64,000 nucleotides of DNA from an uncultured delta proteobacterium (GTDB lineage Bacteria > Desulfobacterota > Syntrophia > Syntrophales > Smithellaceae). Both the position numbers and the translations under genes were made by a program. Numbering within the stretch: position 1 is the first letter of the stretch; each line of letters starts with the position of its first letter. The notes beneath the pieces were generated by a model that did no database searches, was not told where the DNA came from, and saw only the letters and a list, made by a program, of their open reading frames with translations. Shown here piece after piece: positions 14,879-63,407 of this stretch. The stretch covers positions 1,301,859 to 1,365,858 of the forward strand of contig CAWEQT010000001.1 of NCBI GenBank assembly GCA_963811325.1, written 5' to 3'.

Positions 14879-14894
14879 TGCAACAAATATGCCA
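14879..14894 (-). promoter_or_regulatory. sigma54 -24/-12 promoter of PEP-CTERM gene 1
   Basis: TGGCAT-ATTTG-TTGCA. Confidence 0.85.
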
Positions 14895-15126: not shown

Positions 15127-15143
15127 TGTAAAGGATTTCGACA
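15127..15143. promoter_or_regulatory. 17-bp enhancer box (putative PrsR site)
   Basis: TGTAAAGGATTTCGACA, 101 bp from the previous box. Confidence 0.7.
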
Positions 15144-16339: not shown

Positions 16340-16356
16340 CGTAAATCATTTCGACA
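16340..16356. promoter_or_regulatory. 17-bp enhancer box
   Basis: CGTAAATCATTTCGACA, 128 nt from the -24 element. Confidence 0.65.
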
Positions 16357-16360
16357 CTTT

Positions 16361-16557
16361 TAATTGTTTATTGGGGTATATAGGGTCATATTTAGGCAGA
16401 AAACTATTATTTTACAATGTATTACAAGAGATTTCATTTTTGTAAAGAATTCCGACACATTAATTGTTTACTTGGGCATATATAGTCATATTTAGGCCTA
16501 AAACTATGATTTTATAATGTATTACAAGTGATTTCATTTTTGTAAAGTATTCCGACA
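16361..16557. repeat. Two-copy 100-bp tandem repeat, each unit ending in an enhancer box
   Basis: 16361-16457 vs 16461-16557, 11 mismatches in 97 nt by manual alignment; boxes TGTAAAGAATTCCGACA (16441) and TGTAAAGTATTCCGACA (16541). Confidence 0.9.
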
Positions 16558-16653
16558 TATTAAAAGATTAACATCAAACATTTTAATAAATAGATAGATT
16601 AACATCATAATTATATTATAAATATTAATGATAGGGAAAGGTAATACAAGGCT

Positions 16654-17318: not shown

Positions 17319-17335
17319 TGTAAAGAATTACGACG
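17319..17335. promoter_or_regulatory. 17-bp enhancer box
   Basis: TGTAAAGAATTACGACG, 117 nt from the putative -24 element. Confidence 0.6.
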
Positions 17336-30163: not shown

Positions 30164-31193
30164 GCCGGAGCTCATCAATCCGTTAGAACAAGAAAACTGG
30201 AATAACCTGCTTATCTCCAAGCCGGGTTATTCCTTTTGTCATACCTCCAACTGGGCTGCCGTTCTGAGCAAATCATACAACTACAAGCCTTTCTACCTGT
30301 GTACCAGAAAAGAAAACACGTTTATCAGCCTTCTGCCGGTGATGGAAATCAATAGCGCCCTCACCGGTAGAAGAGGCGTTTGCCTGCCTTTCACTGACAT
30401 GTGTGAACCGATTGCCAAAAATGCGCAACAGTTTCAGGAATTGTTTGATCAGGCGGTCGTTATGGGTAGAAAGCGAAAATGGAAGTATATGGAAATTCGC
30501 GGAGGAGAAAAATACTTATCTGCAGAAAAGCCGTCACAATCATTTTTTGGTCATACACTGGATTTGAGTTGCGGGCAGCAGCAGCTATTTTCCAATCTGC
30601 GCAATTCCACCAGACGAAACATAAAAAAAGCGCAAAATGAAAAGGTGGAAGTCAGCATATCCAATTCACTAACCGCTGTGAAGGACTTTTACCGGCTCAA
30701 TGCCATGACCAGAAAAAAACACGGACTTCCGCCGCAGCCATACAAATTTTTTAAGCATCTATACGATCAAGTGATCGCCAGAGACATGGGTTTTGTCGCC
30801 ACCGCATCACTGCACGGTCAAGCCATCGCCGCGAATGTTTATTTAAATTTTGGAAAGGAAGTCATTTACAAATATGGATCATCGGATAAAGCATTCCAGC
30901 ATCTGAGAGCAAATAACCTGGTAATGTGGGAAGCCATCAAATGGAGTTGTGAGAGAAGATTCCAAAGCCTCTCTTTTGGCCGGACAGAACAGGGGAATGA
31001 AGGGTTAATGCAGTTCAAAGCAGGATGGGGCGTCAAACCATATCAGATTTATTATTACAGGTATGACTTACGGAAAAATGTTTTTACCTCAGATTCTTCA
31101 GATATCAATCCTTTGTTTAACAAAATATTTTCAAAACTACCCATCCCTCTTTTAAATATTCTGGGCAGAATACTTTATCGCCACATGGGATGA
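30156..31193 (+). CDS. FemAB-like GNAT family protein
   Basis: STRRNIKKA, IYKYGSS, ANNLVMWEAIKW, FGRT, GLMQFKAGWG; ATG at 30156 overlaps the upstream stop. Confidence 0.8.
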   Translation: MHEPELINPLEQENWNNLLISKPGYSFCHTSNWAAVLSKSYNYKPFYLCTRKENTFISLLPVMEINSALTGRRGVCLPFTDMCEPIAKNAQQFQELFDQAVVMGRKRKWKYMEIRGGEKYLSAEKPSQSFFGHTLDLSCGQQQLFSNLRNSTRRNIKKAQNEKVEVSISNSLTAVKDFYRLNAMTRKKHGLPPQPYKFFKHLYDQVIARDMGFVATASLHGQAIAANVYLNFGKEVIYKYGSSDKAFQHLRANNLVMWEAIKWSCERRFQSLSFGRTEQGNEGLMQFKAGWGVKPYQIYYYRYDLRKNVFTSDSSDINPLFNKIFSKLPIPLLNILGRILYRHMG

Positions 31194-31333
31194 TAAAAAG
31201 TGTTTTTGTCCTTATAATACTTGCAATTTATTAGACAATAGTCTAATAAATTCAGATTAATTGTCTATTATTGTTCCAAATTGTAAGTTATTTGCCCCCC
31301 TCGGATACCTCTATGTAACCGAGAGGGCGGAGC

Positions 31334-31368
31334 TGAATCTTGAACATTGCCCCTTTAGCCTTGAACCT
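31334..31368 (+). repeat. Phased heptamer array A
   Basis: TGAATCT TGAACAT TGCCCCT TTAGCCT TGAACCT, then degenerate units. Confidence 0.85.
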
Positions 31369-31522
31369 TTACTTGAACTGCCCCCCGTTAGGGCGAAGTC
31401 GGAGCATTTCCGAGGGGACACGCAAAGTACATAATAACGGGAAAATTAATTGCGACACAGTCTCTTCGCCAGTATGACATAATTGCTGTTTTTATACAGT
31501 TATTTAAAGGTCCCAATAAAAT

Positions 31523-33619
31523 ATGAATTCAAGTAAAAACTATTACTATTTTTTAAAAACTTTTATGCCGCGTCAGCTACAGATTTATCTGCGTAGAAAG
31601 TTTATAAATCGAAAAATTTTACTAAATAAAAATATATGGCCAATTGATAAAAAAGCTGTAACGTCGCCGGAGGACTGGCAGGGCTGGCCTGATGGTAAAA
31701 AGTTTGCATTTGTTTTGACACACGATGTAGAAACAGAAAAAGGATTAAATAAATGTCGTGAATTGATGAATATCGATGAAAAATTTGGTTTCCGGTCTTC
31801 TTTTAACTTTGTCACCGGAGATTATCAAATCCCTGAAGAGCTGCTAAATGAACTTCAGACGCGCGGTTTTGAAATAGGTATTCATGGTCTGCATCACGAC
31901 GGCAATATTTTCCGTTCAAGGAAAGTATTTGCAGAACACGCGGCACAGATCAACCAGACGCTGAAAAAATGGAATTCCGCTGGTTTCCGCAGCCCCAGCA
32001 TGTATCATAACCTGGATTGGCTGCATGATCTGAATATTAAATATGACGCCTCCACCTTTGACACAGACCCGTTCGAGCCCCAGCCGGACGGCATGGGAAC
32101 CATCTTCCCCTTCTGGATCGAGGGGAAAAACGGAAAGCGTGGTTATGTGGAACTGCCCTATACCCTTCCCCAGGATTTTTTGTTATTTATCTTAATGCAG
32201 CATGAAAATATCGACATTTGGAAAACAAAGCTTGATTGGATCGTCAAACAGAGCGGCATGGCCTTATTGATCACACATCCCGACTACATAAATTTCGCGA
32301 ACAACAAATTAAAAGAAAACGAATATCCAGTAAAATATTACGCAGAATTTCTCCAGTACATTAAAACAAAATACGAAGGCCAGTATTGGCAATCCCTGCC
32401 AAGAGATATGGCTCATTTTTGGTCAACCAACTTCAGAAATAAAAAAAATATTACCAGAAAACCAAAACATATTTGTATGCTCGCTTATTCATTTTACGAA
32501 TCAGACAACAGAATCATGCGTTACGCCGATGCACTGACCGAACGGGGCGACACGGTCGATATTATCGCATTAAAGAGTGAAGGTAACCCACCATATGAAA
32601 AGATCAGCAATGTCAACATTTATCGAGTACAAAAACGGATGATCAATGAAAAAAATCAATTAACATATCTGACGAAACTAGTGATATTTCTTATCAAGTC
32701 CTTTGCATTTATCACAAAAAAACATCTGCAACATCCATACGATATCGTCCACGTGCATTCCGTACCGGATTTTGAAGTTTTTGCGGCACTGATACCGAAA
32801 CTACAAGGCAGCTCAATCATACTGGATGTTCACGATATCGTACCGGAGTTTTATGCCAGCAAATTTTCCGGTAATAAAGACAGCTTTTTTTTCAAAGCTT
32901 TGGTTAAAATTGAACGGCTTTCGATTAAATTCTCTGACCATGTTATTATTTCCAACCATCTGTGGCATAAAACGCTAACATCCCGCTCCCTAAATGAAAG
33001 TAAATGCACCACCATAATGAATTATCCCGATGAGGCCATTTTTTATCAGCGGCCAAGAACCAGACACGATGACAAATTTATCATGCTTTACCCCGGGACA
33101 CTTGGTTGGCATCAAGGATTGGATATCGCCATTAAAGCATTCGCAAAAATAAAAGACCAGGCGCCACATGCTGAATTTCATATTTACGGTCGTGGATCCG
33201 AAAGAAATAAGCTGACCGGACTCATCGCAGAACTTCATCTGGATAACAAAGTTTTCATCAAAGATATAATGCCCATCAATGAAATAGCCGAAGTCATGGC
33301 CAATGCCGATCTGGGTATTGTGCCCAAGAAAAACGATCCTTTCGGCGGAGAAGCCTTCAGCACCAAAACACTTGAATTCATGTCTTTGGGCATACCCGTG
33401 ATTGTCTCAAAAACGAAAATAGATAATTATTATTTTAACGATTCAGTCGTAAAATTCTTCAATCCGGATGATGTGAATGATTTAGCACAGTCCATGATCA
33501 CAATGCTGAAGAACAAGGAACAACGGGACACACTCCGGGATAACGCGTTTTGCTTTGTCGAAGATTATCGCTGGTCGAAAAAGAAAAATGAATATTTTGA
33601 TTTGGTTGATTCATTATAA
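31523..33619 (+). CDS. Polysaccharide-deacetylase-like domain fused to GT4 glycosyltransferase
   Basis: N-part LTHDVE, IGIHGLHHDG, GFRSPS, ELPYTLPQD; C-part LYPGTLGWHQGLD, ADLGIVPK, KTLEFMSLGIPVI. Confidence 0.85.
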   Translation: MNSSKNYYYFLKTFMPRQLQIYLRRKFINRKILLNKNIWPIDKKAVTSPEDWQGWPDGKKFAFVLTHDVETEKGLNKCRELMNIDEKFGFRSSFNFVTGDYQIPEELLNELQTRGFEIGIHGLHHDGNIFRSRKVFAEHAAQINQTLKKWNSAGFRSPSMYHNLDWLHDLNIKYDASTFDTDPFEPQPDGMGTIFPFWIEGKNGKRGYVELPYTLPQDFLLFILMQHENIDIWKTKLDWIVKQSGMALLITHPDYINFANNKLKENEYPVKYYAEFLQYIKTKYEGQYWQSLPRDMAHFWSTNFRNKKNITRKPKHICMLAYSFYESDNRIMRYADALTERGDTVDIIALKSEGNPPYEKISNVNIYRVQKRMINEKNQLTYLTKLVIFLIKSFAFITKKHLQHPYDIVHVHSVPDFEVFAALIPKLQGSSIILDVHDIVPEFYASKFSGNKDSFFFKALVKIERLSIKFSDHVIISNHLWHKTLTSRSLNESKCTTIMNYPDEAIFYQRPRTRHDDKFIMLYPGTLGWHQGLDIAIKAFAKIKDQAPHAEFHIYGRGSERNKLTGLIAELHLDNKVFIKDIMPINEIAEVMANADLGIVPKKNDPFGGEAFSTKTLEFMSLGIPVIVSKTKIDNYYFNDSVVKFFNPDDVNDLAQSMITMLKNKEQRDTLRDNAFCFVEDYRWSKKKNEYFDLVDSL

Positions 33620-33721
33620 CCTTTAACCTTTTTTCTTTGTCCTCCGCTGGCGCGTTTAGTCCGGCGTATGTCTGGAAGGGTGTCACACAGTGACGGAGGT
33701 GGACAAAGGACTTCCGGCTTT

Positions 33722-33770
33722 CTTTCCTTTATCCTTGCTCCTTGAACCTTTAGCCTTTAACCTTGAGCAT
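33722..33770 (+). repeat. Phased heptamer array B
   Basis: CTTTCCT TTATCCT TGCTCCT TGAACCT TTAGCCT TTAACCT TGAGCAT, ending 9 nt before the ATG at 33780. Confidence 0.88.
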
Positions 33771-35956: not shown

Positions 35957-35998
35957 TTATCCTTTACCCTTGCACCTTGAGCTTTGTGCCTTTATCCT
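35957..35998 (+). repeat. Phased heptamer array C
   Basis: TTATCCT TTACCCT TGCACCT TGAGCTT TGTGCCT TTATCCT, ending 3 nt before the ATG at 36002. Confidence 0.88.
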
Positions 35999-52022: not shown

Positions 52023-52406
52023 TTTTTCTTAAATAACAAAGGCATCCATTGTTCTCTTACGCATACCATCCGGCGGTATGATCAACAAAAAAGAGCCTGT
52101 AAACTGATCTGTGCGAATAGAATAATTTCCATATAAATGCTAAAATGTGTTGGTGCATAACAGCAAATTTTGAAATTGTCAATGCCAGATTGGCTGAGGG
52201 ACTCGTCCATTTATTTATCATATCCTGAACGACAGGCAATAATGGTTATGCCATAAAACAATGGTTGATAATTTGTGGACAACAGTAATAAGTGATTGTT
52301 AAAATATCTTGGGAGCCATTAAAAGTGTAAACTATGTATCCGTTCTAAAATGTGAACGCTGTTTCAGTTGCACAGTGGATGTATTAATGTAGCCGTAATT
52401 TTCATC

Positions 52407-52431
52407 GTAGGGCGAGTTTTCCAAACACGCC
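52407..52431 (+). repeat. GTAG-type REP-like palindrome
   Basis: GTAG-GGCGAGTTT-TCC-AAACACGCC. Confidence 0.5.
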
Positions 52432-52642
52432 GCTTAGGACTTCGAACTGCTTGGGGAACGGAGTCTGCCCGTCGGCCGGAGGGTGACACCTCTCTTAAAA
52501 TCTCTCGACTTCGCGCCAGTGGAGGATATGAAATGACATTTTTCCTATTGCGAAACAGCCTCCAAGTCCGGAATGATGAATAGCAGAGTTGTGCAGGTCT
52601 CTACTTGCCCAGTCCCCCAATAACATCGGGTGCTGAAGCAGC

Positions 52643-52688: not shown

Positions 52689-55535
52689 TTACCTGCGTTT
52701 TTTCGAATACAACATAGATCTGGCAAAAGTTGCTGCAACAGATTTTGCTACGGTCATAGTTACGGTGCAAGTGCCTGTACCGGAGCATCCTCCACCTGAC
52801 CAACCGGACAAGGTGGATTCACTATTCGCCAAAGCGGTCAAGGCCACTGATTTCCCAGACTCATAATTTACTGAGCAGGTCGAGCCGCAATTGATGAGGC
52901 CATCACTGCCGGTAACAGTCCCTGTTCCCGTACCAGATTTTGTAACGGTTAAGTTATATGTAGTTATGGCAAAAGTTGCAGTAACTGATGTCGCTGCGGT
53001 CATAGATACAGTGCAAGTGCCTGTACCGGAGCATCCTCCTCCTAACCAACCGGTAAAAGTATATCCGCTAGTTGCTGAAGCGGTCAAGGTCTCTGATGTT
53101 CCCAGATCATAATTTGCTGAACAGGTCGAGCCGCAATTGATAGTACTATCACTGCTGGTGATAGTCCCCGCTCCCGTAACAGATTTTGTAACGGTTAAGT
53201 TGTATACAGGTATAAAAGTTGCTGCAACAGATGTCGCTGCGGTCATGGTTACGGTGCAAGTTCCTGTACCGGAACATCCACCTCCTGACCAACCAGAAAA
53301 AATAGATCCGTTATTCGCCAAAGCAGTCAAGGTCACTGATTTTCCAGACTCATAATTTACTGAACAGGTCGAGCCGCAATTGATGAGGCCATCACTGCCG
53401 GTGACAGTCCCAACTCCAGTACCAGATTTTGTAACGGTTAAGTTGTTTGTAGTTATGGCATAATTTGCTGTAACAGGTGTCGCTGCTGTCATGGTTACGG
53501 TGCAAATCCCTGTACCGGCGCATCCTCCTCCTGACCAGCCAGTAAACGTATATCCGTTATTGGCCGAAGCGGTTAAGGTCACAGATGTTTCTGGAGCATA
53601 ATTTGCGGAGCAGGTTGAGCCGCAATTGATGCCTGATGGATTGCTTGTCACTATACCATTAGCTGATATAATTAATAGAGCGTATTGAGTTTTGCCACCC
53701 AGGTCTGCCTCATAATTATAAGCACCCATTCCCCATGTTGAGATTGTTTCATTAAGATAATCAGTCGTGAAAAGTGATGAGAGATTAACGCCAACATCTT
53801 TAGCTGGGGAAGATGATTGCAACTGCCAGTTTCCCGTATTGTCACCTGTAGGAATAGTTACAAAACCTATGTATTTACTGGAATAAGCAGATGAATTATT
53901 GATTCCGTGAGCTTCATATCCTGCGTTTTGACAAGCGGCAAGAGTATTGTATCTGTTCGATGTCCTATTGTCCCATATTAAATGTTCACTTAAAGCCGTA
54001 TTATAGATGTCGTAATCGGCCACTATTGTGCCTGAACAGGTAGCCGTCATTATAATCGAATTATCAGTGGCAGAGAAGATATTGTTTTCAATCGTTGCAT
54101 CATTTACCTGTTCTAAATAAATTCCCGTTGGAGGGTTAGCGATACAGGCATCCATAGCTATCGTGTTGTTATAAATGCTGATATTCTCGAACTGTCCACT
54201 TTGGGCTGCTATCGCAGCAGGAGAAAAGGGTATGCCATAGATACAAGTTTCGGGAGCTATAACATTATCGTATATTAACGCACCGTTTATACTGTTGAAA
54301 TAATAAGTGGTGGGGGTCGTTGAAGACATGGTTACTTCTATTGTTCCCCCTGCGGAAGGAGTAAAACTCCCATTATATGTTTGTTCTTGTATTATTTCCC
54401 CTGGTATAAAAGACGCATGAGCTATAGTATTAAGAATAAGCGTTGTGCTTGTTACCTGTTGAATTTCTCCATACGCCCCCGATGTCAATCCTAACGCCCA
54501 ATAAGTCTCTCTCGAAGCTGTAAATCCTGCTGTTATCGGATTGGATGTCGGGGTAACAATTTTAGCACTTGCACCGTTCATGTAAATAGCCGCTGATGCC
54601 CCCCAATCACCTCTGAAGATGTTATGGTGGATTTTAACATTAGTCATCCAGTTTCCGGTATTTTGAAAAGTATTAGTTCCAATCATAATGCCGTCTGTAT
54701 GATAACTATGATTATTATAAGTACCTCTTCCCATGAAGATATTATTGTAAATTTGAGTATCATCGGAATAGGATACATTGTCGGATTGATTAATGACGAC
54801 ACGACCTGAATTTTCTATGAGATTATCGTAAAAACATAAGTGGGCTGTGTATCCGCCGTTTACAGTACTATTCCCAATATTATGATTAAAGGCATCTACA
54901 GCATTAGTATTTAAGACACAATTTTTCACTTCTAAACTGGATGTTGAATTGCCGTTTATTCCAAAACCAGTCCCATCGGTATAACCGACATTATAAACTC
55001 TTATTCCATCTATTGTTATGTAAGATAGACCGGCAGACATATTTATTCCGTAGCCAGCAGAAATAGAATTGTTAGAAGTAAATGTCGGATAACCTATCCC
55101 CCAAGGAGAACCGTCATTGCAGGAGACAGAAGCGTTTGAGCCGCAAGCCTGAGTTTGCGAATCCGACGAACACCGCACAAAAGGCGTTGCAGGAGTATAG
55201 CCGCATTGCTGACCACCCATGTAAACATCAGGAGTTCCATTTGCGCCGGAGTTTTTTATTGATAATACAGTACTGTATCCAGATTGCATAGGCCATGTCA
55301 CTCCGCCTTTGAAGACAAAGACATCACCGGCGGAGTGAGAATATGTACCCGTAAATCCGGGCATTTCAGGTGCAAATTTCCACGGCGTTGAAGTGGTTGT
55401 CCCGTTATTGGAATCCAAACCTTTAACATAATCTATGTAGTACGTATCTGCTATTGCTATTTTAGAAGATAAAAATATGAGCAGGCAGGTTACAAAAAAT
55501 ACTCCTATTTGATTTAAATTTCTGTCTCTTTTCAT
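52689..55535 (-). CDS. Secreted beta-helix protein, paralog 3, with four C-terminal InlB B-repeat-like domains
   Basis: Shared N-cap; four repeats of LTVTKSGTG.GTVT.SDG.INCGSTCS.NY..G.SV.LTA.A..G..F.GWSGGGCSGTGTCTVTMT. Confidence 0.82.
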   Translation of the reverse strand: MKRDRNLNQIGVFFVTCLLIFLSSKIAIADTYYIDYVKGLDSNNGTTTSTPWKFAPEMPGFTGTYSHSAGDVFVFKGGVTWPMQSGYSTVLSIKNSGANGTPDVYMGGQQCGYTPATPFVRCSSDSQTQACGSNASVSCNDGSPWGIGYPTFTSNNSISAGYGINMSAGLSYITIDGIRVYNVGYTDGTGFGINGNSTSSLEVKNCVLNTNAVDAFNHNIGNSTVNGGYTAHLCFYDNLIENSGRVVINQSDNVSYSDDTQIYNNIFMGRGTYNNHSYHTDGIMIGTNTFQNTGNWMTNVKIHHNIFRGDWGASAAIYMNGASAKIVTPTSNPITAGFTASRETYWALGLTSGAYGEIQQVTSTTLILNTIAHASFIPGEIIQEQTYNGSFTPSAGGTIEVTMSSTTPTTYYFNSINGALIYDNVIAPETCIYGIPFSPAAIAAQSGQFENISIYNNTIAMDACIANPPTGIYLEQVNDATIENNIFSATDNSIIMTATCSGTIVADYDIYNTALSEHLIWDNRTSNRYNTLAACQNAGYEAHGINNSSAYSSKYIGFVTIPTGDNTGNWQLQSSSPAKDVGVNLSSLFTTDYLNETISTWGMGAYNYEADLGGKTQYALLIISANGIVTSNPSGINCGSTCSANYAPETSVTLTASANNGYTFTGWSGGGCAGTGICTVTMTAATPVTANYAITTNNLTVTKSGTGVGTVTGSDGLINCGSTCSVNYESGKSVTLTALANNGSIFSGWSGGGCSGTGTCTVTMTAATSVAATFIPVYNLTVTKSVTGAGTITSSDSTINCGSTCSANYDLGTSETLTASATSGYTFTGWLGGGCSGTGTCTVSMTAATSVTATFAITTYNLTVTKSGTGTGTVTGSDGLINCGSTCSVNYESGKSVALTALANSESTLSGWSGGGCSGTGTCTVTMTVAKSVAATFARSMLYSKKRR

Positions 55536-55593: not shown

Positions 55594-55683
55594 GCCCGGT
55601 AGTTCAGCCACCTTATCCCCCTATGAAGACTTAGGTCTGTAACTTTGCGTCCCACCTTTTCAGATGGTTTGCCTTTTTCAAGC
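55594..55683 (-). ncRNA. c-di-GMP-I riboswitch aptamer, copy 3 (gene-proximal)
   Basis: P1 GCUUG/CGGGC, GGCAAACC, P2 with GAAA tetraloop, GGGACGCAAAG, P3 with CCUAA...UAAGG receptor. Confidence 0.9.
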
Positions 55684-55759
55684 TTTGGTTGTTATTACAC
55701 GCTCTTTTAAAATTTGTTATTTTGTATTGGCAGGATTGCTGGACGGATCTTTTCATGTT

Positions 55760-55849
55760 GCCCGGCAGTTCTGCCACCTTATCCACTTACGAAGACTTAG
55801 GTCAGTAACTTTGCGCCCCACCTTTTCAGATGGTTTGCCTTTTTCAAGC
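55760..55849 (-). ncRNA. c-di-GMP-I riboswitch aptamer, copy 2
   Basis: Same fold, 166 bp upstream; compensatory change in P3 relative to copy 3. Confidence 0.9.
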
Positions 55850-55925
55850 TTTGGTTGTTATTACACGCTCTTTTAAAATTTGTTATTTTGTATTGGCAGG
55901 ATTGCTGGACGGATCTTTTGATGTT

Positions 55926-56015
55926 GCCCGGCAGTTCTGCCACCTTATCCACTTACGAAGACTTAGGTCAGTAACTTTGCGCCCCACCTTTTCAAGTGGT
56001 TTGCCTTTTTCAAGC
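55926..56015 (-). ncRNA. c-di-GMP-I riboswitch aptamer, copy 1
   Basis: Same fold, a further 166 bp upstream; P2 variant CCACUU-GAAA-AGGUGG keeps pairing. Confidence 0.9.
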
Positions 56016-56046: not shown

Positions 56047-56157
56047 TAAAACAACATAATTAAATAGTGTATAATATCATTATCTTACACATAAATGTCG
56101 CTGTCGACTTTCTCAAAATATGGTCATTTTGCCCGTTTTGTAGGTTAAATTCACAAA

Positions 56158-56185
56158 AAGAACAAGGTTCAAGGGGCAAGGTTCA
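56158..56185 (-). repeat. Phased heptamer array D
   Basis: Minus strand TGAACCT TGCCCCT TGAACCT TGTTCTT. Confidence 0.8.
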
Positions 56186-56204
56186 AAAAAAGAATCCAAG
56201 CCAT

Positions 56205-56221
56205 TGTCGGAATACTTTACA
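56205..56221. promoter_or_regulatory. 17-bp enhancer box
   Basis: TGTCGGAATACTTTACA (reverse complement TGTAAAGTATTCCGACA, identical to the box at 16541), 128 nt from the -24 of PEP-CTERM gene 3. Confidence 0.8.
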
Positions 56222-56349: not shown

Positions 56350-56365
56350 TGGCATAACAATTGCA
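56350..56365 (+). promoter_or_regulatory. sigma54 promoter of PEP-CTERM gene 3
   Basis: TGGCAT-AACAA-TTGCA. Confidence 0.85.
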
Positions 56366-56430: not shown

Positions 56431-57066
56431 ATGAAAATAAAATTAATTACGTTTTTTTTCACGGTTGTAATGCTTTGTGCATTCAGCACAGCAACAATGG
56501 CTCTTACTATTCCGTACAATGGTGAGGAGGTTTATATAACCCATGCCGGTTACCCTGGTAACGTTGGCGGGGGAATCTTTATGGTGCAGTCAGACCCGGG
56601 ACACAACAATCTTTTCGAAACATTTTGTACCGAACTTGGTGTTGTACTTCAATATCCTCCTTATATTGTGGAGCTTGGTACATCTTCCCTACCTTCTGGT
56701 ATCCCACTAACTCCCCAAGAAGCTTATTTATATTATAGTTTTAGAGCGGGAACTCTACCATTTTATGTTAACAATAACACTGATGCTGATGCCCTTCAGT
56801 TTGCATTCTGGATTCTTGAAGGTCAAATAAAGGGCGTTCCATCACCTGACGTTCCATTATTCGGAGCACAGACAGACGCTTACCTTGCATTCGCAAACTC
56901 TACAACATGGACTACTACCGGTGATGTTGGTGTTATGAATCTTATAAACACGCAGGGCCAATATACGCAAGCCATGTTGGCCTTGGTTCCTGAACCGCTG
57001 ACGATATTATTGCTTGGTTTTGGTCTCCTCGGTCTGGGAATTACCAGAAGAAAGTTAAAGAAATAA
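56431..57066 (+). CDS. PEP-CTERM surface protein 3 with thioester-domain-like motifs
   Basis: Signal peptide; FCTE, LQFAFWILE, TQAML; LVPEPLTILLLGFGLLGLGITRRKLKK. Confidence 0.93.
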   Translation: MKIKLITFFFTVVMLCAFSTATMALTIPYNGEEVYITHAGYPGNVGGGIFMVQSDPGHNNLFETFCTELGVVLQYPPYIVELGTSSLPSGIPLTPQEAYLYYSFRAGTLPFYVNNNTDADALQFAFWILEGQIKGVPSPDVPLFGAQTDAYLAFANSTTWTTTGDVGVMNLINTQGQYTQAMLALVPEPLTILLLGFGLLGLGITRRKLKK

Positions 57067-57085: not shown

Positions 57086-57120
57086 AAAAAAACCAGCAGT
57101 TTAAACGCTGCTGGTTTTTT
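57086..57120 (+). terminator. Terminator of PEP-CTERM gene 3
   Basis: AAAAAAACCAGCAG-TTTAAACG-CTGCTGGTTTTTT. Confidence 0.85.
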
Positions 57121-57363
57121 ATTGTGAAACTCCAATTCTAATGAAACTCAGATATTACATATTACAAATGCAGTGCAGTAATATCTGTAAGTTGTAATAA
57201 GGTTTAGACTTCAAAAGCAAAGCGCATTGAAGTTTTTTAGCCGAATTATCCAAAAGCCAAAGGCTATTGGAAACAATTCGGCAAAGCGGAAGGTACATAC
57301 CCCGCAGCTTGCTTTGGGGGTGATACCCGTGATTGTCTTGATTTCTTTGATAAAAATTGCAGG

Positions 57364-57380
57364 TGTCGGAATACTTAACA
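57364..57380. promoter_or_regulatory. 17-bp enhancer box (no linked sigma54 promoter found)
   Basis: TGTCGGAATACTTAACA. Confidence 0.65.
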
Positions 57381-57473: not shown

Positions 57474-57490
57474 CGTCGGAATAGTTTACA
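57474..57490. promoter_or_regulatory. 17-bp enhancer box (no linked sigma54 promoter found)
   Basis: CGTCGGAATAGTTTACA. Confidence 0.65.
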
Positions 57491-57500
57491 GATTTGAAAA

Positions 57501-57535
57501 AGATTCAAGGGGCAAGCAACAAGGTTTAAGGCAAT
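57501..57535 (-). repeat. Phased heptamer array E, overlapping the ATPase stop codon
   Basis: Plus strand AGATTCA AGGGGCA AGCAACA AGGTTTA AGGCAAT. Confidence 0.75.
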
Positions 57536-58746
57536 TGGGCAAGCCACTGCCAGGCCGGCGAGATCAAAATTTTATGTGTTCCATTGGGTATAATCCGATA
57601 ACCATTGCCAGCCTCAATTAGCAAAACGGCGGGCACACCCAATCTGTTTTGAAATGCCAAAAGAGGTTTTGCAGGCTGTGAATCGGATAATTTTGCCTCA
57701 ATAAGCAGAAAAGGTTCGCCGCTGTTAGCAATCAAAAAATCAACCTCCCTCTTCTCTTTATCCCTTATGAAATGAAGAGAAAAGACGCCTGATCCCATGT
57801 CGTTCCATATGGTTACTGCTCGCAATAACTCACAGGCCACCATGTTTTCGAAACGTGTAGCAGGATCCTTGATCCTCGGGTAGTCATAAAGATAGCATTT
57901 CCGTTCTTTCTGAATAGCCCGGGCAACTTTGCCCGTCCAAGTTGGAATACTGAATGTCAGATAAAATCTTTCCAGAATATCAAGCCAGCTCCGCACAGTA
58001 TTGTAAGAAACCTTCAAGTTTTCCGCAAGTGAAGTCACGGAAAGCGGGCTGCCAATTTTTGACGGTAGAAGTGTATAAATTGTTTCTATATCCTGCACGG
58101 ATTTGATATCTGTTAAATCACGGATGTCTTCTCTGACTAGTTGCCGCGTATAGGTGTTAGTCCAACGCCGGTAAGTGGTCTCACGACCGGAAAGGTAAGG
58201 CTCGGGAAATCCGGATAAAATGGCAAGCTGTTGCCAGATGACCTTCAGACGTTCACTTTTCTTCATATTCAAATGCAAGGGGTCGCTCATGAACTCTTCA
58301 AAAGGCCTGTTCATGCCGCCCAGTTCTGCAATGGTAAAAGGAAAAAGATGAAAAAGATAATACCTGCCTGCCAGTGAATCACCGCCTTTCTGATAGATGT
58401 CAAGGCGTCCACTGCCGGAAATGAGAAATTTGAATTCGTCACTAAATTCATCATAAATGCCCTTCAGATAATTTTTCCAGTCTTTGTATTTATGAAGTTC
58501 ATCAAAAATGATCAGGGGCACGGAATTGTCTTTCCTGACAAGATGTGAAAAAAATCCAGGATCCTGAAGAAGATGCGTGCGGTTATTCGTTATATCCCAG
58601 TTCCAATAAAGACTATTGCTAAAAGATTCGGCAATAATCTTTGTAAGTGTCGTCTTACCTGACTGGCGGGGACCGGCCAAAAAAATCATCGCTTTGTCAT
58701 GAGACAATTCTTTCCACACACTAATATAAGGGGTTCGCTTTTTCAT
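57526..58746 (-). CDS. AAA+ ATPase with DUF4143 / PD-(D/E)xK-like C-terminus (COG1373 type)
   Basis: GPRQSGKTT, IIFDELH, SGS, SLAGR, GFPEPYL, RKCYLYD, FENMVACEL, EVDFLI...IEAK. Confidence 0.9.
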   Translation of the reverse strand: MKKRTPYISVWKELSHDKAMIFLAGPRQSGKTTLTKIIAESFSNSLYWNWDITNNRTHLLQDPGFFSHLVRKDNSVPLIIFDELHKYKDWKNYLKGIYDEFSDEFKFLISGSGRLDIYQKGGDSLAGRYYLFHLFPFTIAELGGMNRPFEEFMSDPLHLNMKKSERLKVIWQQLAILSGFPEPYLSGRETTYRRWTNTYTRQLVREDIRDLTDIKSVQDIETIYTLLPSKIGSPLSVTSLAENLKVSYNTVRSWLDILERFYLTFSIPTWTGKVARAIQKERKCYLYDYPRIKDPATRFENMVACELLRAVTIWNDMGSGVFSLHFIRDKEKREVDFLIANSGEPFLLIEAKLSDSQPAKPLLAFQNRLGVPAVLLIEAGNGYRIIPNGTHKILISPAWQWLAQLP

Positions 58747-58752
58747 ATGGCT

Positions 58753-58792
58753 ATTATTCAGTTAATTGAAAAATAGTCAAGACTATTTTTCA
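58753..58792 (-). promoter_or_regulatory. sigma70-like promoter with overlapping 12-bp perfect palindrome, probably leaderless
   Basis: TTGACT-N16-AATAAT ends 6 nt before the ATG; TGAAAAATAGTC-AA-GACTATTTTTCA at 58767-58792. Confidence 0.55.
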
Positions 58793-58817
58793 GTGAGCAT
58801 AAAAAAGGACGAGGAAC

Positions 58818-58866
58818 AGGGGCAAGGACAAAGGATAAAGGTTCAAGGATAAAGGATAAAGGAGAA
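58818..58866 (-). repeat. Phased heptamer array F
   Basis: Plus strand AGGGGCA AGGACAA AGGATAA AGGTTCA AGGATAA AGGATAA AGGAGAA. Confidence 0.9.
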
Positions 58867-58936
58867 AAGAAAATTCCATTAAAAAAGTGCTCGCTTTTTT
58901 CTATCTAATATATTAAATAATTACAATATCCTAAAG

Positions 58937-59821
58937 GTGAATATGAGCGAAAATTCTCTGGCTGAAAAAATCAAGGAACATCTTAACACTAGAAATATTG
59001 TTTTTCTTCTTTTTGCGGTTTTGGCATTGATCATGGCTTATACGTCGATCAAAGCGCTTTATTTCTCAAATAAAAGCGAATATTATTCGCATATCGCGCT
59101 TATTCCTCTGGTGAGCATTTATCTGATTTACATCAACCGCGAAGAAATTTTTGCAAAAGTAAATTATTTATTTGCTGTGGGAATTCTCGTTTTGCTTCTG
59201 GGCATAGCTCTGTTTCTGGGCGGAATTTTATGGGGTGCGCCGCTGGATCAAAACAATTACGCGTCTCTTATCGCCTTTTCTATCTTCATTTTCATAAACG
59301 GAGCTTTTATTCTTCTTTACGGTATGCAGGCTTACCGAAGCGCTTTGTTCCCTCTTCTCTTTTTGATTTTTATCGTTCCTATCCCCACGGTTCTCATGGA
59401 TAATATCATCCATTTTTTACAGGTCGGTTCCACGGAGTTTGTAAATCTGTTATTTCTGGCCTCGGGAACGCCGTTTATAAGAGATGGCTTTGTCTTTCAA
59501 TTACCAAATGTCAGTGTCGAAGTGGCTAAACAATGCAGTGGCATCCGGTCAGGCATGGCTATTTTTATTGTCGCCATTTTGGCCGGTTATATGTTTCTGA
59601 ACTCCTACTGGAAAATAATTTTTCTTACTATCTGCGCAGTATTGATCGCCATGTTAAAAAATGGTATCCGGATTTTTACGCTCTCATTATTAGGAAATTA
59701 TGTTGATCCGCGAATTCTTGCAAGCTCTCTGCACAGAGAAGGCGGCATACCTTTTTTTATTGTGGCGCTGCTGTTGTTGGCTCCAATACTGTTTTTTTTA
59801 AGAAGATCAGAAAAGAAGTAA
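58937..59821 (+). CDS. xrtA: Exosortase (XrtA type, no fused EpsI domain)
   Basis: 8 TM segments, YYSHIALIP, catalytic Cys VAKQCSGIRS, Arg NGIRI, His LHREGG. Confidence 0.9.
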   Translation: MNMSENSLAEKIKEHLNTRNIVFLLFAVLALIMAYTSIKALYFSNKSEYYSHIALIPLVSIYLIYINREEIFAKVNYLFAVGILVLLLGIALFLGGILWGAPLDQNNYASLIAFSIFIFINGAFILLYGMQAYRSALFPLLFLIFIVPIPTVLMDNIIHFLQVGSTEFVNLLFLASGTPFIRDGFVFQLPNVSVEVAKQCSGIRSGMAIFIVAILAGYMFLNSYWKIIFLTICAVLIAMLKNGIRIFTLSLLGNYVDPRILASSLHREGGIPFFIVALLLLAPILFFLRRSEKK

Positions 59822-59914: not shown

Positions 59915-62032
59915 ATGCCTTTTAATGTTGATCTTTCATTTGCGGCGGCGGGCGTTACTATTGCAGTGATTGTCATCGGCATTTACCGCGGGCCGCGTTC
60001 TTTTGTTCAGGGTATATTTGCCTTCGGCATGGTGCTTCTGTCTCTGGAGGCTGCACTCACTGGTCTTGTTTATCAGTCAAACTCACTTTCGGGATTCCTT
60101 TTCTGGCAGCGGTTGCGGTTTATTGTAGCCTCTCTTGTACCGGCTGCCTGGCTGTTCTTCAGCATCAGCTTTGCCCGCGCTAATTATTCCGAACAAATAT
60201 CTAAATGGAAGTGGGTTTTGCTGCTGGCAGTTGTTGCGCCGCTTTCCCTGATTACTATTTTTAATAATGACTTTATTTCTTTAGTTCTGGCGCCGCAAAA
60301 TTCGTCAACTCTGTTTATCCGGATAGGATGGTCCGGCTATCTATGGCACATAATCTCTATTATACTATCCATAGCCATTCTCATGAATCTGGAAAGAACT
60401 TTCCGTCATTCTACCGGGCACATTCGCTGGCAGACCAAATTCATGTTTCTGGGTATAGGCAGTATTTTTGGAATACGGCTTTTTACGGACAGTCAGGTTG
60501 TCCTCTTCAACGGCGTGGATACAGGTCTTTATTTAGTTGATCTGGGCGCTCTTCTGATAGCCGACTTTTTTATTTTCCGGTCGCTATTTCGCGGCAAGCC
60601 GCTGAATGTCAGCATTCAGCTTTCACACCAGTTTCTCTATACTTCCTTCACTATCCTGATTGTTGGCGCATATTTTATATCACTGGGAATGATTGCCTGG
60701 GTTTCGCTGCATTTCGAATGGCTCAGAAATATCAACCTGGCTATCTTCCTGACTTTTGTTGTAATAATTGGATTGGCCACTTTTCTGCTTTCCGATCGGC
60801 TGAGAACAAAACGAAAACGTTTCATCAGCCGGCATTTAAAGCGTCCGCAATACGATTATCAAAAAATATGGGAAGACTTCACCCAGAGAACTGCCTCTGT
60901 AACAAAAACTAACGAGTTATGTAATATTATCGTCAAGATGGTGTCGGATACACTGGGGATTCTTTCCGTCAGCATCTGGCTTGTTGACGAAAAGCAGGAA
61001 CAATTATCTTTTGGCGGGTCAACGGTGTTTACCGCAGATCAGATCGAAGAAATGAACTTTTTCAAAGAAGGAGGAAAGGAGCTGATCCGCGCCATGATTA
61101 ATCAAAAAATGCCGCTTGATTTGAAAGGGCGAGAAGATGACTGGGTTTCTGATCTGGCCCATACCTATAAATTGGAAACCAAGGAATCACGCATCCGCTA
61201 CTGCGTTCCTCTTAATGCCGCCGGACAGCTAATTGGAATAATGACCTTAAGCGAAAAAGTATTTTATGAATCGCTTACCTTTGAAGAATCGGAACTGATT
61301 AAAACTATTTCCGATCAGGCCGCGGCCGCTTTATTGGGCCTGAGACTTTCCGAACGTCTGCGTCAGACAAAGGAACTGGAGGCATTTCAGACCATGTCTG
61401 CTTTTTTTATGCACGATTTGAAAAATCTGGCATCAAAACTGTCTCTGGTGACGCAAAATCTGCCCCTGCATATGGATAACCCGGAGTTCCGCACAGATGC
61501 GCTGAAAACTATTTCTCAGAGTGTATCCAAAATTAACAAGATGAGCAGCCGCCTTTCTCTCTTAAGCCAGAAAATTGATCTTTCCTTTCGCGAAACAAAT
61601 ATAAATGACCTGATAACCGCAACTATCTCCGATTTGAAAGAATATGTAAAGGTTCCGGTATCTCAGAATTTCGATCGGAACATGCCTCTGCTTCCCATAG
61701 ATCAGGAACAAATGCACAAAGTACTTGAAAATCTGCTCATGAATGCATACGATGCGATGGGAAATGATGGCCAAATTTCTGTTGCTACAATTTTTCAGGA
61801 TAACTGGGTGGAAATTTCCGTAAGCGATACCGGCTGCGGAATTTCTAAAGAATTTTTGGAGAAAAATATTTTCCGTCCTTTTCAGACAACAAAAAAGCAG
61901 GGGATGGGCATTGGCCTTTATCATTGTAAAACTATTGTAGATGCACATGGCGGTAAACTTTACGTGGAAAGCGAGGAAGGCAAGGGAACTGTATTCAAAA
62001 TACTGCTGCCGCCTGGCAGAAACCGTGAATGA
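59915..62032 (+). CDS. prsK: PEP-CTERM system histidine kinase PrsK
   Basis: N-terminal TM block, LERTFRHS, GAF domain, H-box FMHDLKN, NLLMNA, DTGCG, FQTTKKQGMGIGLY. Confidence 0.92.
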   Translation: MPFNVDLSFAAAGVTIAVIVIGIYRGPRSFVQGIFAFGMVLLSLEAALTGLVYQSNSLSGFLFWQRLRFIVASLVPAAWLFFSISFARANYSEQISKWKWVLLLAVVAPLSLITIFNNDFISLVLAPQNSSTLFIRIGWSGYLWHIISIILSIAILMNLERTFRHSTGHIRWQTKFMFLGIGSIFGIRLFTDSQVVLFNGVDTGLYLVDLGALLIADFFIFRSLFRGKPLNVSIQLSHQFLYTSFTILIVGAYFISLGMIAWVSLHFEWLRNINLAIFLTFVVIIGLATFLLSDRLRTKRKRFISRHLKRPQYDYQKIWEDFTQRTASVTKTNELCNIIVKMVSDTLGILSVSIWLVDEKQEQLSFGGSTVFTADQIEEMNFFKEGGKELIRAMINQKMPLDLKGREDDWVSDLAHTYKLETKESRIRYCVPLNAAGQLIGIMTLSEKVFYESLTFEESELIKTISDQAAAALLGLRLSERLRQTKELEAFQTMSAFFMHDLKNLASKLSLVTQNLPLHMDNPEFRTDALKTISQSVSKINKMSSRLSLLSQKIDLSFRETNINDLITATISDLKEYVKVPVSQNFDRNMPLLPIDQEQMHKVLENLLMNAYDAMGNDGQISVATIFQDNWVEISVSDTGCGISKEFLEKNIFRPFQTTKKQGMGIGLYHCKTIVDAHGGKLYVESEEGKGTVFKILLPPGRNRE

Positions 62033-62054: not shown

Positions 62055-63407
62055 TTGCGAAAACAAAAACTATTAATCGTTGACGATGATGAAGATCTGC
62101 GCACTCAGATGAAATGGGCGTTAACGGCGGACTATGATGTTTATCTGGCTGAAGACCGGCAAAGCGCCATCGCCATTATAAATAAAGAGCAGCCGGCTGT
62201 AGTCACCCTGGATCTGGGTCTGCCGCCAAATCCCGTAGGTGTTGAAGAAGGTTTCGCTATCCTCGACCATATCCTTGATAACTATAGCCACACAAAAGTT
62301 ATTATCATAACCGGGCGCGGTGAAAAAGAAAATGCCCTGCGCGCTGTCGAAAAAGGCGCATACGACTTCTTTTACAAACCGATTGAATTAGACGAGCTGA
62401 AAGTTGTGTTGCGGCGAGCATTCCATGTTTCTCAACTGGAGAAGGAACAACGTGAGTTGCGGCATCGTTTAAGCGGCGACACTTTTGAAGACATGATTGG
62501 AACTTCCCAAAAAATGCAGGATGTCTTTTCCACCATTCGCAAAGTGGCAACAACTGACGCACCTGTTTTAATAAGGGGCGAAAGCGGTACCGGCAAAGAA
62601 CTGGTTGCCCGTGCCATTCACCGGCTGAGTATCCGCGAATCCAAGCCTTTTATTCCTATTAATTGCAGCGCCATTCCTGAAAATCTTATTGAAAGTGAAC
62701 TTTTTGGGCATGAGAAAGGAACATTCACTGGCGCGCATGCTCAGCGTAAAGGAAGATTTGAAATGGCTGAGGGAGGAACTCTTTTTCTTGATGAAGTTGG
62801 TGATCTTCCACTGACACTTCAAGTAAAACTTCTTCGTTTTCTTCAAGAAAAAATAATAGAACGTGTAGGAGGCAGAGAACAAATAGAGGTGGACACTCGA
62901 TTTTTGGCGGCTACCAATCGTGATCTTGAAGAAGCAATGAAAAATTCAACTTTCCGGGACGATTTATATTATCGTCTAAGCGTCATAAATATTTCTCTCC
63001 CGCCATTGAGGGAAAGAAATGTAGATGTCGTTATCTTGGCTAAAACTTTTCTGGATCGATATACAAGTGAAAATAGAAAAAAGATTAAAGGATTCACCCG
63101 TCAAGCTATCGAATCCATCGAACGCTACCCCTGGCCTGGAAATGTCCGAGAATTGGAGAACCGGATAAAACGAGCGGTAATTATGTCTGAGGGTAAAAAA
63201 ATTTCACCGAAAGACTTAGGAATGGAGTCAACTGTAGGCAAGGAAGAGTACATTGTGCTCAAAGATGCTCGCGAAATATTGGAAAAGGAGCTCATTTTAA
63301 AAGCCATAGCGCGAAATGAACAGAATCTAACTAAAGCAGCATCGGATCTTGGAGTCAGCCGTCCTACTTTATATGATTTAATGGAAAAATTAGGTATTCC
63401 AAGGTAA
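62055..63407 (+). CDS. prsR: PEP-CTERM-box sigma54 response regulator PrsR
   Basis: Receiver LDLGLPP, GESGTGKEL, ESELFGHEKGTFTGA, WPGNVRELEN, Fis-type HTH LGVSRPTLYDLM. Confidence 0.93.
   Translation: MRKQKLLIVDDDEDLRTQMKWALTADYDVYLAEDRQSAIAIINKEQPAVVTLDLGLPPNPVGVEEGFAILDHILDNYSHTKVIIITGRGEKENALRAVEKGAYDFFYKPIELDELKVVLRRAFHVSQLEKEQRELRHRLSGDTFEDMIGTSQKMQDVFSTIRKVATTDAPVLIRGESGTGKELVARAIHRLSIRESKPFIPINCSAIPENLIESELFGHEKGTFTGAHAQRKGRFEMAEGGTLFLDEVGDLPLTLQVKLLRFLQEKIIERVGGREQIEVDTRFLAATNRDLEEAMKNSTFRDDLYYRLSVINISLPPLRERNVDVVILAKTFLDRYTSENRKKIKGFTRQAIESIERYPWPGNVRELENRIKRAVIMSEGKKISPKDLGMESTVGKEEYIVLKDAREILEKELILKAIARNEQNLTKAASDLGVSRPTLYDLMEKLGIPR

Follow-up and report, generated by a model that had tools for sequence, protein, structure and literature searches.

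A predicted ATPase-nuclease gene between heptamer arrays in the exopolysaccharide locus of a Smithellaceae bacterium

We analysed a stretch of 64,000 nucleotides (the window) from an uncultured Smithellaceae bacterium (GenBank assembly GCA_963811325.1, contig CAWEQT010000001.1) in which a COG1373-type gene, here called the ATPase gene, lies between two arrays of heptamer repeats beside an exosortase gene. By comparison with related sequences, this gene appears to be an insertion that is not fixed at the site, and near-identical copies in other contexts point to recent movement. The series of presence and absence across relatives shows that the gene travels as a minimal unit with its own promoter. 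Differences in gene content between relatives start and stop in or beside the arrays. Nothing shows that the arrays drive insertion; they mark the spots at which the gene content of relatives differs. On balance, we lean towards the explanation that this is a self-contained accessory gene, either defence-like or selfish, in a repeat-rich recombination hotspot where arrays are the joints of content exchange.

The gene, its product and the edges of the unit

The ATPase open reading frame (ORF; 57526-58746, minus strand) encodes a protein of 406 aa assigned to COG1373. Pfam identifies an AAA_14 domain (residues 19-142; E = 2.8e-26, 92.5 bits with a cut-off of 27) followed by DUF4143 (from residue 206; E = 6.1e-24, 85 bits with a cut-off of 28.1). 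The N-terminal AAA_14 domain is a P-loop NTPase, DUF4143 has a predicted winged helix-turn-helix in its N-terminal portion, and a PD-(D/E)xK motif lies at the C-terminus. Walker A (G25PRQSGKTT33) and Walker B (I79IFDE83) are both intact. In an alignment of 26 homologues G30, K31, T32, D82 and E83 are unchanged, as are D336, E350 and K352 of the C-terminal motif (EVD336F...IE350AK352), which bears out the P-loop and D...ExK C-terminus that a first-pass annotation of the window had described. The E(I/V)DF...E-x-K motif is also kept in COG1373 paralogues of 23-36% identity near xrtA (L015, L035, L040 and L049; L numbers denote the loci compared).

DUF4143 is listed among the families of the PD-(D/E)xK superfamily (PMC3424549), and in the predicted structure the C-terminal segment (residues 295-406, predicted local distance difference test (pLDDT) score 67-94) has a helix-strand-strand-strand topology. 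The C-terminal domain is a predicted PD-(D/E)xK nuclease that carries the motif of the superfamily, and its catalysis is a prediction. Seven PDC-S01 profile hidden Markov models from PADLOC match the protein over its full length (best E = 6.8e-53); it is an ordinary member of the known, uncharacterised COG1373/PDC-S01 family. A sequence search of the PDB with the protein gave no match, and we found almost no functional data on DUF4143 and COG1373 in the literature. PDC-S01 is a very abundant family, considered a candidate defence system, that has moved repeatedly between Bacteria and Archaea (PMC12988326). In one published heterologous test, E. coli with a PDC-S01 representative was not protected from T4, T5 or T7. 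The role in defence that the first-pass annotation had thought possible is not supported here beyond a PADLOC candidate match. Only three distant matches were found on plasmids, and two on phages.

The ATPase gene runs antisense to both of its plus-strand neighbours, a PEP-CTERM protein gene (56431-57066) and xrtA (58937-59821), and has its own promoter, as the first-pass annotation had held. The -35 box (TTGACT, 58775-58780) and the -10 box (AATAAT, 58753-58758) are separated by a 16-nt spacer and agree with the consensus at 10 of 12 positions. The conserved sequence containing the promoter and a putative operator (58747-58795, minus strand) is common to all ATPase homologues, and the promoter is conserved in 42 independent genomic contexts. 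A 12-bp inverted repeat (arms 58767-58778 and 58781-58792; hairpin z = -4.25), with the -35 box between its arms, may be an autoregulatory operator. The transcript is probably leaderless, because there is no Shine-Dalgarno sequence upstream of the ORF and the ATG follows the -10 box after only 6 nt.

Across these 42 contexts, which have unrelated flanks, information content goes up from about 66 nt 5' of the ATG and is zero at the first base past the stop codon. In blastn comparisons with homologues of 84-88% identity in other contexts, promoter-side homology reaches as far as 58792/58793, where the inverted repeat has its outer edge; the 3' end of homology is at 57525-57528 in L061 and L062, and at most 27 nt into the array in L060. 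The conserved unit of promoter/operator and ORF measures about 1.27 kb in close homologues and up to about 1.29 kb in the wider set. No terminal inverted repeats, 3' untranslated region or second gene were identified in it.

Arrays, empty sites and movement among relatives

The stop codon of the ATPase gene (TAA, 57526-57528) is inside array E (about 57501-57555, plus strand), a short, degenerate NNYAAGG run with three clean AAGG units within about seven loosely periodic ones. Array F (about 58806-58867, plus strand) consists of 7-8 NNYAAGG units (6.3 copies of period 7 by tandem-repeat finder) that separate the ATPase promoter from the conserved promoter region of xrtA; its unit number is different in L057 and L016. 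Both arrays read NNYAAGG on the plus strand, and the flanking by same-orientation arrays noticed at first pass is thereby confirmed, with E weak. By eye we found no exact match between them of more than about 9 nt, and we put their exact identity at about 9-11 nt only. We considered excision by homologous recombination between E and F and judged it unlikely at this extent of exact identity; efficient excision of a circle is unlikely because the arrays share microhomology only.

Counting period-7 AAGG/CCTT arrays of at least three units, we identified seven in the window, six of them in intergenic gaps, compared with 0.03 expected from block-wise dinucleotide shuffles (shuffle mean; shuffle maximum 1). 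The ATPase gene is the sole gene of 46 in the window with an array within 100 bp of both ends. Arrays are present at 14 of 17 flanks of close ATPase homologues versus 5 of 90 other gene ends in the window. Counts of arrays, hairpins and COG1373 genes cover the window and the loci of relatives.

The identical ATPase protein is encoded on 12 contigs, always in the context seen in the window and with identical arrays. These contigs therefore represent one clonal population, in which the gene is single-copy and the arrays show no length polymorphism, as compared on nine contigs encoding the identical protein. In 43 loci from other species (found with XrtA, 50-93% identical) we saw no ATPase orthologue next to xrtA, and this supports the earlier view of a gene that is inserted and unrelated to exopolysaccharide (EPS) synthesis. 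The absence is informative at least in L010, L013, L017, L018 and L019, each with 1.8-8 kb of upstream DNA. A gene fixed at this position across the clade, which would have spoken against an insertion, is not what we see, as relatives including L017 and L019 lack it beside xrtA.

In L017, the counterpart of window position 56162 is joined directly to that of 58872 via a 32-bp purine-rich tract, and both the PEP-CTERM gene and the ATPase gene are missing. In L019, the PEP-CTERM gene is followed by 430 bp and then by xrtA, without an ATPase gene. Relatives of this form were anticipated at first pass, with a single array in place of the gene; the empty site of L019 instead has two degenerate AAGG-rich tracts, at the positions of arrays E and F. 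Array counterparts are present in the empty sites of both L019 and L017, and from those in L019 it follows that the flanking arrays were not simply created by insertion.

Nine close homologues (84-97% identity) occur in other contexts. Seven of them (L053, L056-L060 and L067) have arrays on every flank for which there is sequence. These arrays are CCTT-type on the sense strand of the gene, except for a CCGTGAA-type array downstream in L059, and the stop codon lies within the first array unit in every flanked homologue whose 3' end is on the contig. The L061 homologue (86%) has a short array on one side only and of opposite polarity, the gene being inverted relative to the array, and the L062 homologue (84%) has no flanking arrays. 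None were seen at the 11 closely read loci of homologues of at most 76% identity (all other lineages). Array flanking, of which the first-pass annotation had asked whether it is general among COG1373 homologues, is seen in these seven of the nine close homologues and does not extend to the more distant ones.

The L061 ATPase gene lies between orthologues of window segments 31053-31350 and 31637-32425. The corresponding gap in the window, between a FemAB-like gene and a GT4 gene, contains only a CCTTRNN array (31352-31369, minus strand) and flanking GC-rich hairpins, and the L061 synteny break falls within this array. A site that is empty in the window and filled in a relative gives substance to the first-pass idea of occupied and empty sites; no evidence was found for the dedicated cassette-integrating array system that went with it. 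Synteny also breaks, with L017, L057 and L059, at array D (56156-56186, plus strand, three units), the left edge of the variable block, and at array F in L056, where there is a 1.26-kb RHH-PemK toxin-antitoxin insertion. In total, breakpoints were located in arrays D, E and F and at 31352, and some junctions of the same island are without any array.

The neighbours of the ATPase gene in the window are EPS genes. Copies in relatives adjoin RHH-PemK, ParE/Phd and PIN modules (L053 and L056) and cas3 (L055); a 94% homologue is beside toxin-antitoxin modules, a 77% homologue beside larC and a 74% homologue beside type I-C cas3. The L067 ATPase gene, of 96% nucleotide identity, is preceded by a different PEP-CTERM gene together with a prsR fragment. 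The syntenic ATPase in L057 is only 90% identical, versus 93% for its flanking xrtA and prsK.

Target-site duplication was evaluated at 56 loci, of which 54 were usable; scores for L077 and L102 were slicing artefacts and were set aside. At 12 of the 54, flanking direct repeats of about 20 to 90 bp exceeded the 99th percentile of controls. Direct duplications of local sequence were found at distant homologues (47-50 bp from the stop codon in L131 and L134; 33 bp in L069-L071), and a 90-bp direct duplication in L066 includes the start of the downstream gene. We rejected a fixed target-site duplication: repeat lengths and positions are inconsistent, most repeats lie away from the ends of the unit, and several are dispersed repeats already present in those genomes.

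The exopolysaccharide locus and its repeats

The window (39% G+C) covers an XrtA/PEP-CTERM EPS locus with about 25 genes for EPS biosynthesis and export and three PEP-CTERM protein genes, and its XrtA relatives place it in Smithella/Smithellaceae, order Syntrophales. PrsK (59915-62032; TIGR02916, 392 bits with a cut-off of 300) and PrsR (62055-63407; TIGR02915, 642 bits with a cut-off of 503) were identified. The exosortase (58937-59821; Exosortase_EpsH, E = 1.9e-45) scores below subtype cut-offs (XrtA, 135 versus 208 bits; XrtC, 174 versus 300 bits) despite its PrsK and PrsR neighbours. No match to integrase, transposase or recombinase families was found in the 46 window ORFs scanned.

The conserved xrtA promoter/leader and exosortase gene (58881-59821, plus strand) form the fixed right-hand border of the variable block. 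The PEP-CTERM gene at 56431-57066 is a variable module, absent in L017 and L059 and replaced in L057. Between the triple-riboswitch gene described below and xrtA, relatives have PEP-CTERM genes, a VanZ/LamG gene, RHH-PemK, ParE/Phd and PIN modules and the ATPase gene. Arrays also adjoin toxin-antitoxin modules, PEP-CTERM genes and other variable content. Three unrelated COG1373 genes in all occur in this gap in relatives, one of them a truncated second COG1373 gene. The third COG1373 ATPase (23% identical; L015 39-1196 and L052 2698-3864) lies 30 nt before the xrtA ATG, on the xrtA strand, and has its own leaderless-type promoter (TTGACA-N17-TATATT). In L010 and L056-L058, a segment of about 105 bp adjacent to xrtA has sequence in common with the region immediately 5' of this third gene and could pass for a remnant of its promoter. 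A functional link between the ATPase and the exosortase was rejected because the COG1373 genes near xrtA in relatives vary in subfamily, position and orientation.

The PEP-CTERM gene at 56431-57066 is preceded by a sigma-54 promoter (56350-56365) and a TGT-N11-ACA motif (56205-56221). Perfect matches to the sigma-54 promoter occur at 56350-56365 and 14879-14894. The motif, TGTCGGAATAnTTTACA (TGT-N11-ACA), is present in 8 copies versus 0.67 expected, all near PEP-CTERM genes; copies are at 56205-56221, 57364-57380, 57474-57490, 15127-15143, 16340-16557 and 17319-17335. It is a candidate site for upstream activation by the PrsR enhancer-binding protein. A 100-bp tandem repeat (16341-16563; 2.2 copies, 86% matches) between PEP-CTERM and PilZ-domain genes contains one TGT-N11-ACA per unit.

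Three tandem cyclic di-GMP-I riboswitch aptamers (55595-56015, minus strand; 76-78 bits each), in a 166-bp repeat, precede the gene (52689-55535) for a protein of 948 aa that has InlB B-repeat (Flg_new_2) domains. The triple arrangement is apparently conserved in L017, L019, L025 and L057. A pan motif (RF01749; 667-737, minus strand; 44.8 bits versus a gathering score of 36.2) was identified downstream of a LysM/SLT gene (787-2754, minus strand).

The NNYAAGG arrays are part of a lineage-specific intergenic repeat family, usually found beside a GC-rich double hairpin. This element of about 42 nt, GTCCYCCGCTGGCGGRGGTG-(hairpin 2)-CGGRGGTGGA, has co-varying stem segments. Its pattern has 62 matches in the loci examined, often nested with other structured modules; a few are chance matches inside genes. 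By pattern match, copies in the window are at 33639-33716, 49628 and 11474 (minus strand). Heptamer arrays mostly adjoin the double hairpin, most commonly just 3' of it. Two CCTTRNN arrays (33620-33764, minus strand) surround the copy at 33639-33716, between GT4 and deacetylase genes, and a CCTTRNN array of 4-5 units (35961-35998, minus strand) lies between a pyruvyl-transferase gene and a FrhB-like gene. Three types of heptamer unit are distributed by lineage: CCTTGNN, CCGTGAA/CTGTAAA and TCACTAT. Arrays in sister lineages comprise CCGTGAA/CTGTGAA (more than 20 units), TCACTAT/TTACTAT and YTCCTGT (L059 1740-2000, L060 160-250, and downstream of the ATPase gene in L039 and L040). The YTCCTGT units resemble MTYCTGA repeats of Geobacter metallireducens. 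Neither a scan of the window at gathering thresholds nor a permissive one of L053 gave an Rfam family for the arrays or the GC-rich hairpin.

Two further repeats were identified in the window. A repeat of about 215 nt (57119-57335), similar to miniature inverted-repeat transposable elements (MITEs), lies 3' of the PEP-CTERM terminator. In L010 (1818-2022), the xrtA leader is interrupted by an inverted copy of about 78% identity; the element is absent at the corresponding place in L019. A dispersed repeat 3' of the gene for the 948-aa protein (52375-52540) has copies of 72-89% identity beside hairpin elements in L053, L058 and L067.

Competing explanations and known systems

In the explanation towards which we lean, the arrays would be fragile, recombination-prone and selectively neutral joints between modules, at which short-homology or illegitimate recombination and slippage would insert or delete self-contained genes. 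The arrays would not be att-like sites of a dedicated integration machine. The ATPase gene would be driven by its own sigma-70 promoter, and its product would most likely be an NTP-dependent nuclease, acting in defence or as a selfish, addiction-like gene. Several points weigh against this explanation. In about 42 contexts the unit has a 3' edge, at the stop codon, of a sharpness unusual for random illegitimate recombination, a hint of a defined element end. The array phase runs straight on from the terminal ...CCT TGA/TAA of the gene in every close homologue, and about 25-40 bp of promoter-side array are seemingly homologous between copies at different loci, so the arrays could travel with the gene and not only be its target. 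The enrichment of arrays (seven versus 0.03 expected) is inflated because the copies share descent. The AlphaFold2 model made from 26 homologues is poor (whole-chain pLDDT 58), and with this poor model as the query Foldseek found nothing in the PDB at E <= 1e-3; its top matches were chain M of two McrBC complex structures, at E of 4e-3 to 6e-3. We infer the nuclease activity, autoregulation, leaderless start and defence phenotype alike.

The gene could instead move itself, although we consider this improbable. Its own ATPase-nuclease would cut repeat-rich DNA (arrays or hairpins here, other repeats elsewhere), and the 1.27-kb unit would be copied in, as for a free-standing homing endonuclease gene or a minimal transposon, with arrays as preferred targets or scars. 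The sharp ends of the unit in 42 contexts (left near the operator repeat, right at the stop codon), the near-identical copies in different contexts, the direct repeats above control in 12 of 54 usable loci and the insertion at array sites in both orientations are consistent with such movement, as is the match of the array unit CCTTGAN to the last 6 nt of the gene (CCT TGA). The extreme abundance and repeated domain crossing of the family (PMC12988326), together with one negative defence test, also favour it. However, the unit lacks terminal inverted repeats, and the protein has none of the known transposase or integrase folds. The direct repeats are of variable length, are mostly off the unit ends, are in several cases pre-existing, and are absent from most loci. 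Furthermore, both arrays have counterparts in the L019 empty site, so they were not made by insertion, and the gene is single-copy in the population of the window and rare on plasmids and phages. We regard as equally doubtful the wider claim that PDC-S01/COG1373 genes would be minimal self-mobile units of about 1.27 kb, with their own product inserting them into repetitive intergenic DNA; in the Smithella lineage, CCTTGAN arrays, with a unit equal to the last six bases of the gene, would then be the targets or footprints.

The arrays may also be regulatory elements of the EPS/exosortase regulon, with the ATPase gene between two of them by accident. This, too, is unlikely in our judgement. The arrays could be multivalent sites for a DNA- or RNA-binding protein, and as RNA would present Shine-Dalgarno-like AAGG(A) or anti-Shine-Dalgarno-like CCUU. 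Positions of several arrays fit such a role: D is 24 nt upstream of the TGT-N11-ACA motif that precedes the PEP-CTERM sigma-54 promoter, E directly follows another TGT-N11-ACA copy, F is directly 5' of the conserved xrtA promoter, and those at 33.7 and 36.0 kb are just before start codons inside the EPS operon. Heptamer repeats of Beggiatoaceae (PMC4679880) and Geobacter (PMC2700814) were proposed, not shown, to be regulator binding sites. However, with respect to the gene downstream, polarity is opposite between two parts of the window, with CCTT before plus-strand EPS genes and AAGG before the plus-strand xrtA and PEP-CTERM genes. Unit number and sequence change or decay between close relatives, and sister lineages have other heptamer unit types instead. 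Arrays also flank ATPase copies beside toxin-antitoxin genes, outside the EPS context, and at 14 of 17 homologue flanks they are too frequent to be easily put down to accident.

Far less probable is an integron-like cassette system, the form in which the first-pass annotation had cast the locus, with arrays as recombination sites, E-ATPase-F occupied and A-D empty. Modules do come and go as whole units: L017 is without any, L019 carries the PEP-CTERM gene alone, and in the window this gene is joined by the ATPase gene; L056 adds a toxin-antitoxin pair at array F, and the empty site at 31352 is filled in L061. However, such a system fails its defining tests. Among the 46 window ORFs scanned there is no match to an integrase, transposase or other recombinase family, the cassette has its own promoter, and the arrays are tandem direct repeats without an attC-like imperfect palindrome. 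Orientation is not fixed (the gene is inverted in L061), arrays are dispensable (L062 and all closely read homologues of at most 76% identity), and some junctions in the island have no array.

PDC-S01/COG1373 proteins have been reported tens of thousands of times in prokaryotic genomes. New here are the consistent bracketing by arrays, a minimal cassette with exact edges and the series of filled and empty sites. Together, the locus and its relatives form a natural series in which a site is found empty, filled once or filled differently, and in which the same gene also turns up elsewhere. In one lineage, the ATPase gene is nearly always array-bracketed, and arrays also mark other breakpoints in gene content. 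Two testable questions are raised: whether COG1373 genes are defence genes or selfish mobile genes, and whether bacterial heptamer arrays serve as fragile joints in gene shuffling and not as regulatory sites. If the gene is self-mobile, PDC-S01, now counted among the commonest prokaryotic 'defence systems', would be made up of mobile elements instead. Should the gene prove to be no more than an accessory one in a hotspot, the finding would be ordinary, if still of use in annotating EPS loci.

Among known systems, insertion sequences and transposons differ from the unit described here, which has no terminal inverted repeats, transposase domain or fixed-length target-site duplication. Integron cassettes are likewise single genes that are bounded by repeats, vary between strains and can occur in series; unlike them, the ATPase gene has its own promoter and free orientation, and there is no IntI, attI/attC structure or common external promoter. 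Homing endonuclease genes (intronless homing) are also single nuclease-encoding genes with their own promoter; they are inserted between conserved genes, and some close relatives have them while others do not. In contrast to these, the COG1373 gene is found in dozens of unrelated sites, has no known cognate target, encodes an extra AAA+ ATPase domain, and its nuclease is predicted. PDC-S01 has the same single-gene fusion of ATPase and PD-(D/E)xK domains, and relatives' copies are beside toxin-antitoxin and cas genes; the papers that we found are silent on the conserved promoter/operator, on the sharpness of the cassette edges and on heptamer arrays at the flanks.

The repeats resemble repetitive extragenic palindromic sequences and bacterial interspersed mosaic elements (REP/BIME) in their short GC-rich hairpins, in both orientations, that form mosaics with other modules between operon genes. 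They differ in having unrelated sequence, no transposase of the REP-associated type (RAYT) seen, and attached heptamer arrays that have no REP/BIME counterpart. The short tandemly repeated repetitive (STRR) sequences of cyanobacteria are intergenic heptamer tandem repeats comparable to the arrays of the window. STRR-like features were found here: tandem 7-nt units in several intergenic arrays, far above chance, and also in many related loci. Other known heptamer tandem repeats include TAACTGA in Beggiatoaceae (PMC4679880) and the GGACCGG x4 and MTYCTGA x5 elements of Geobacter metallireducens (PMC2700814), for which regulatory roles were proposed and no link to gene insertion was described. 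Like our arrays, known heptamer repeats consist of 7-nt units in tandem, with 3-10 of them to an array and many intergenic copies in each genome; their units are specific to lineages, and their function is not established. Unlike them, the arrays of the window have the unit NNYAAGG/CCTTRNN, usually occur with a GC-rich double hairpin, and lie at the edges of differences in gene content.

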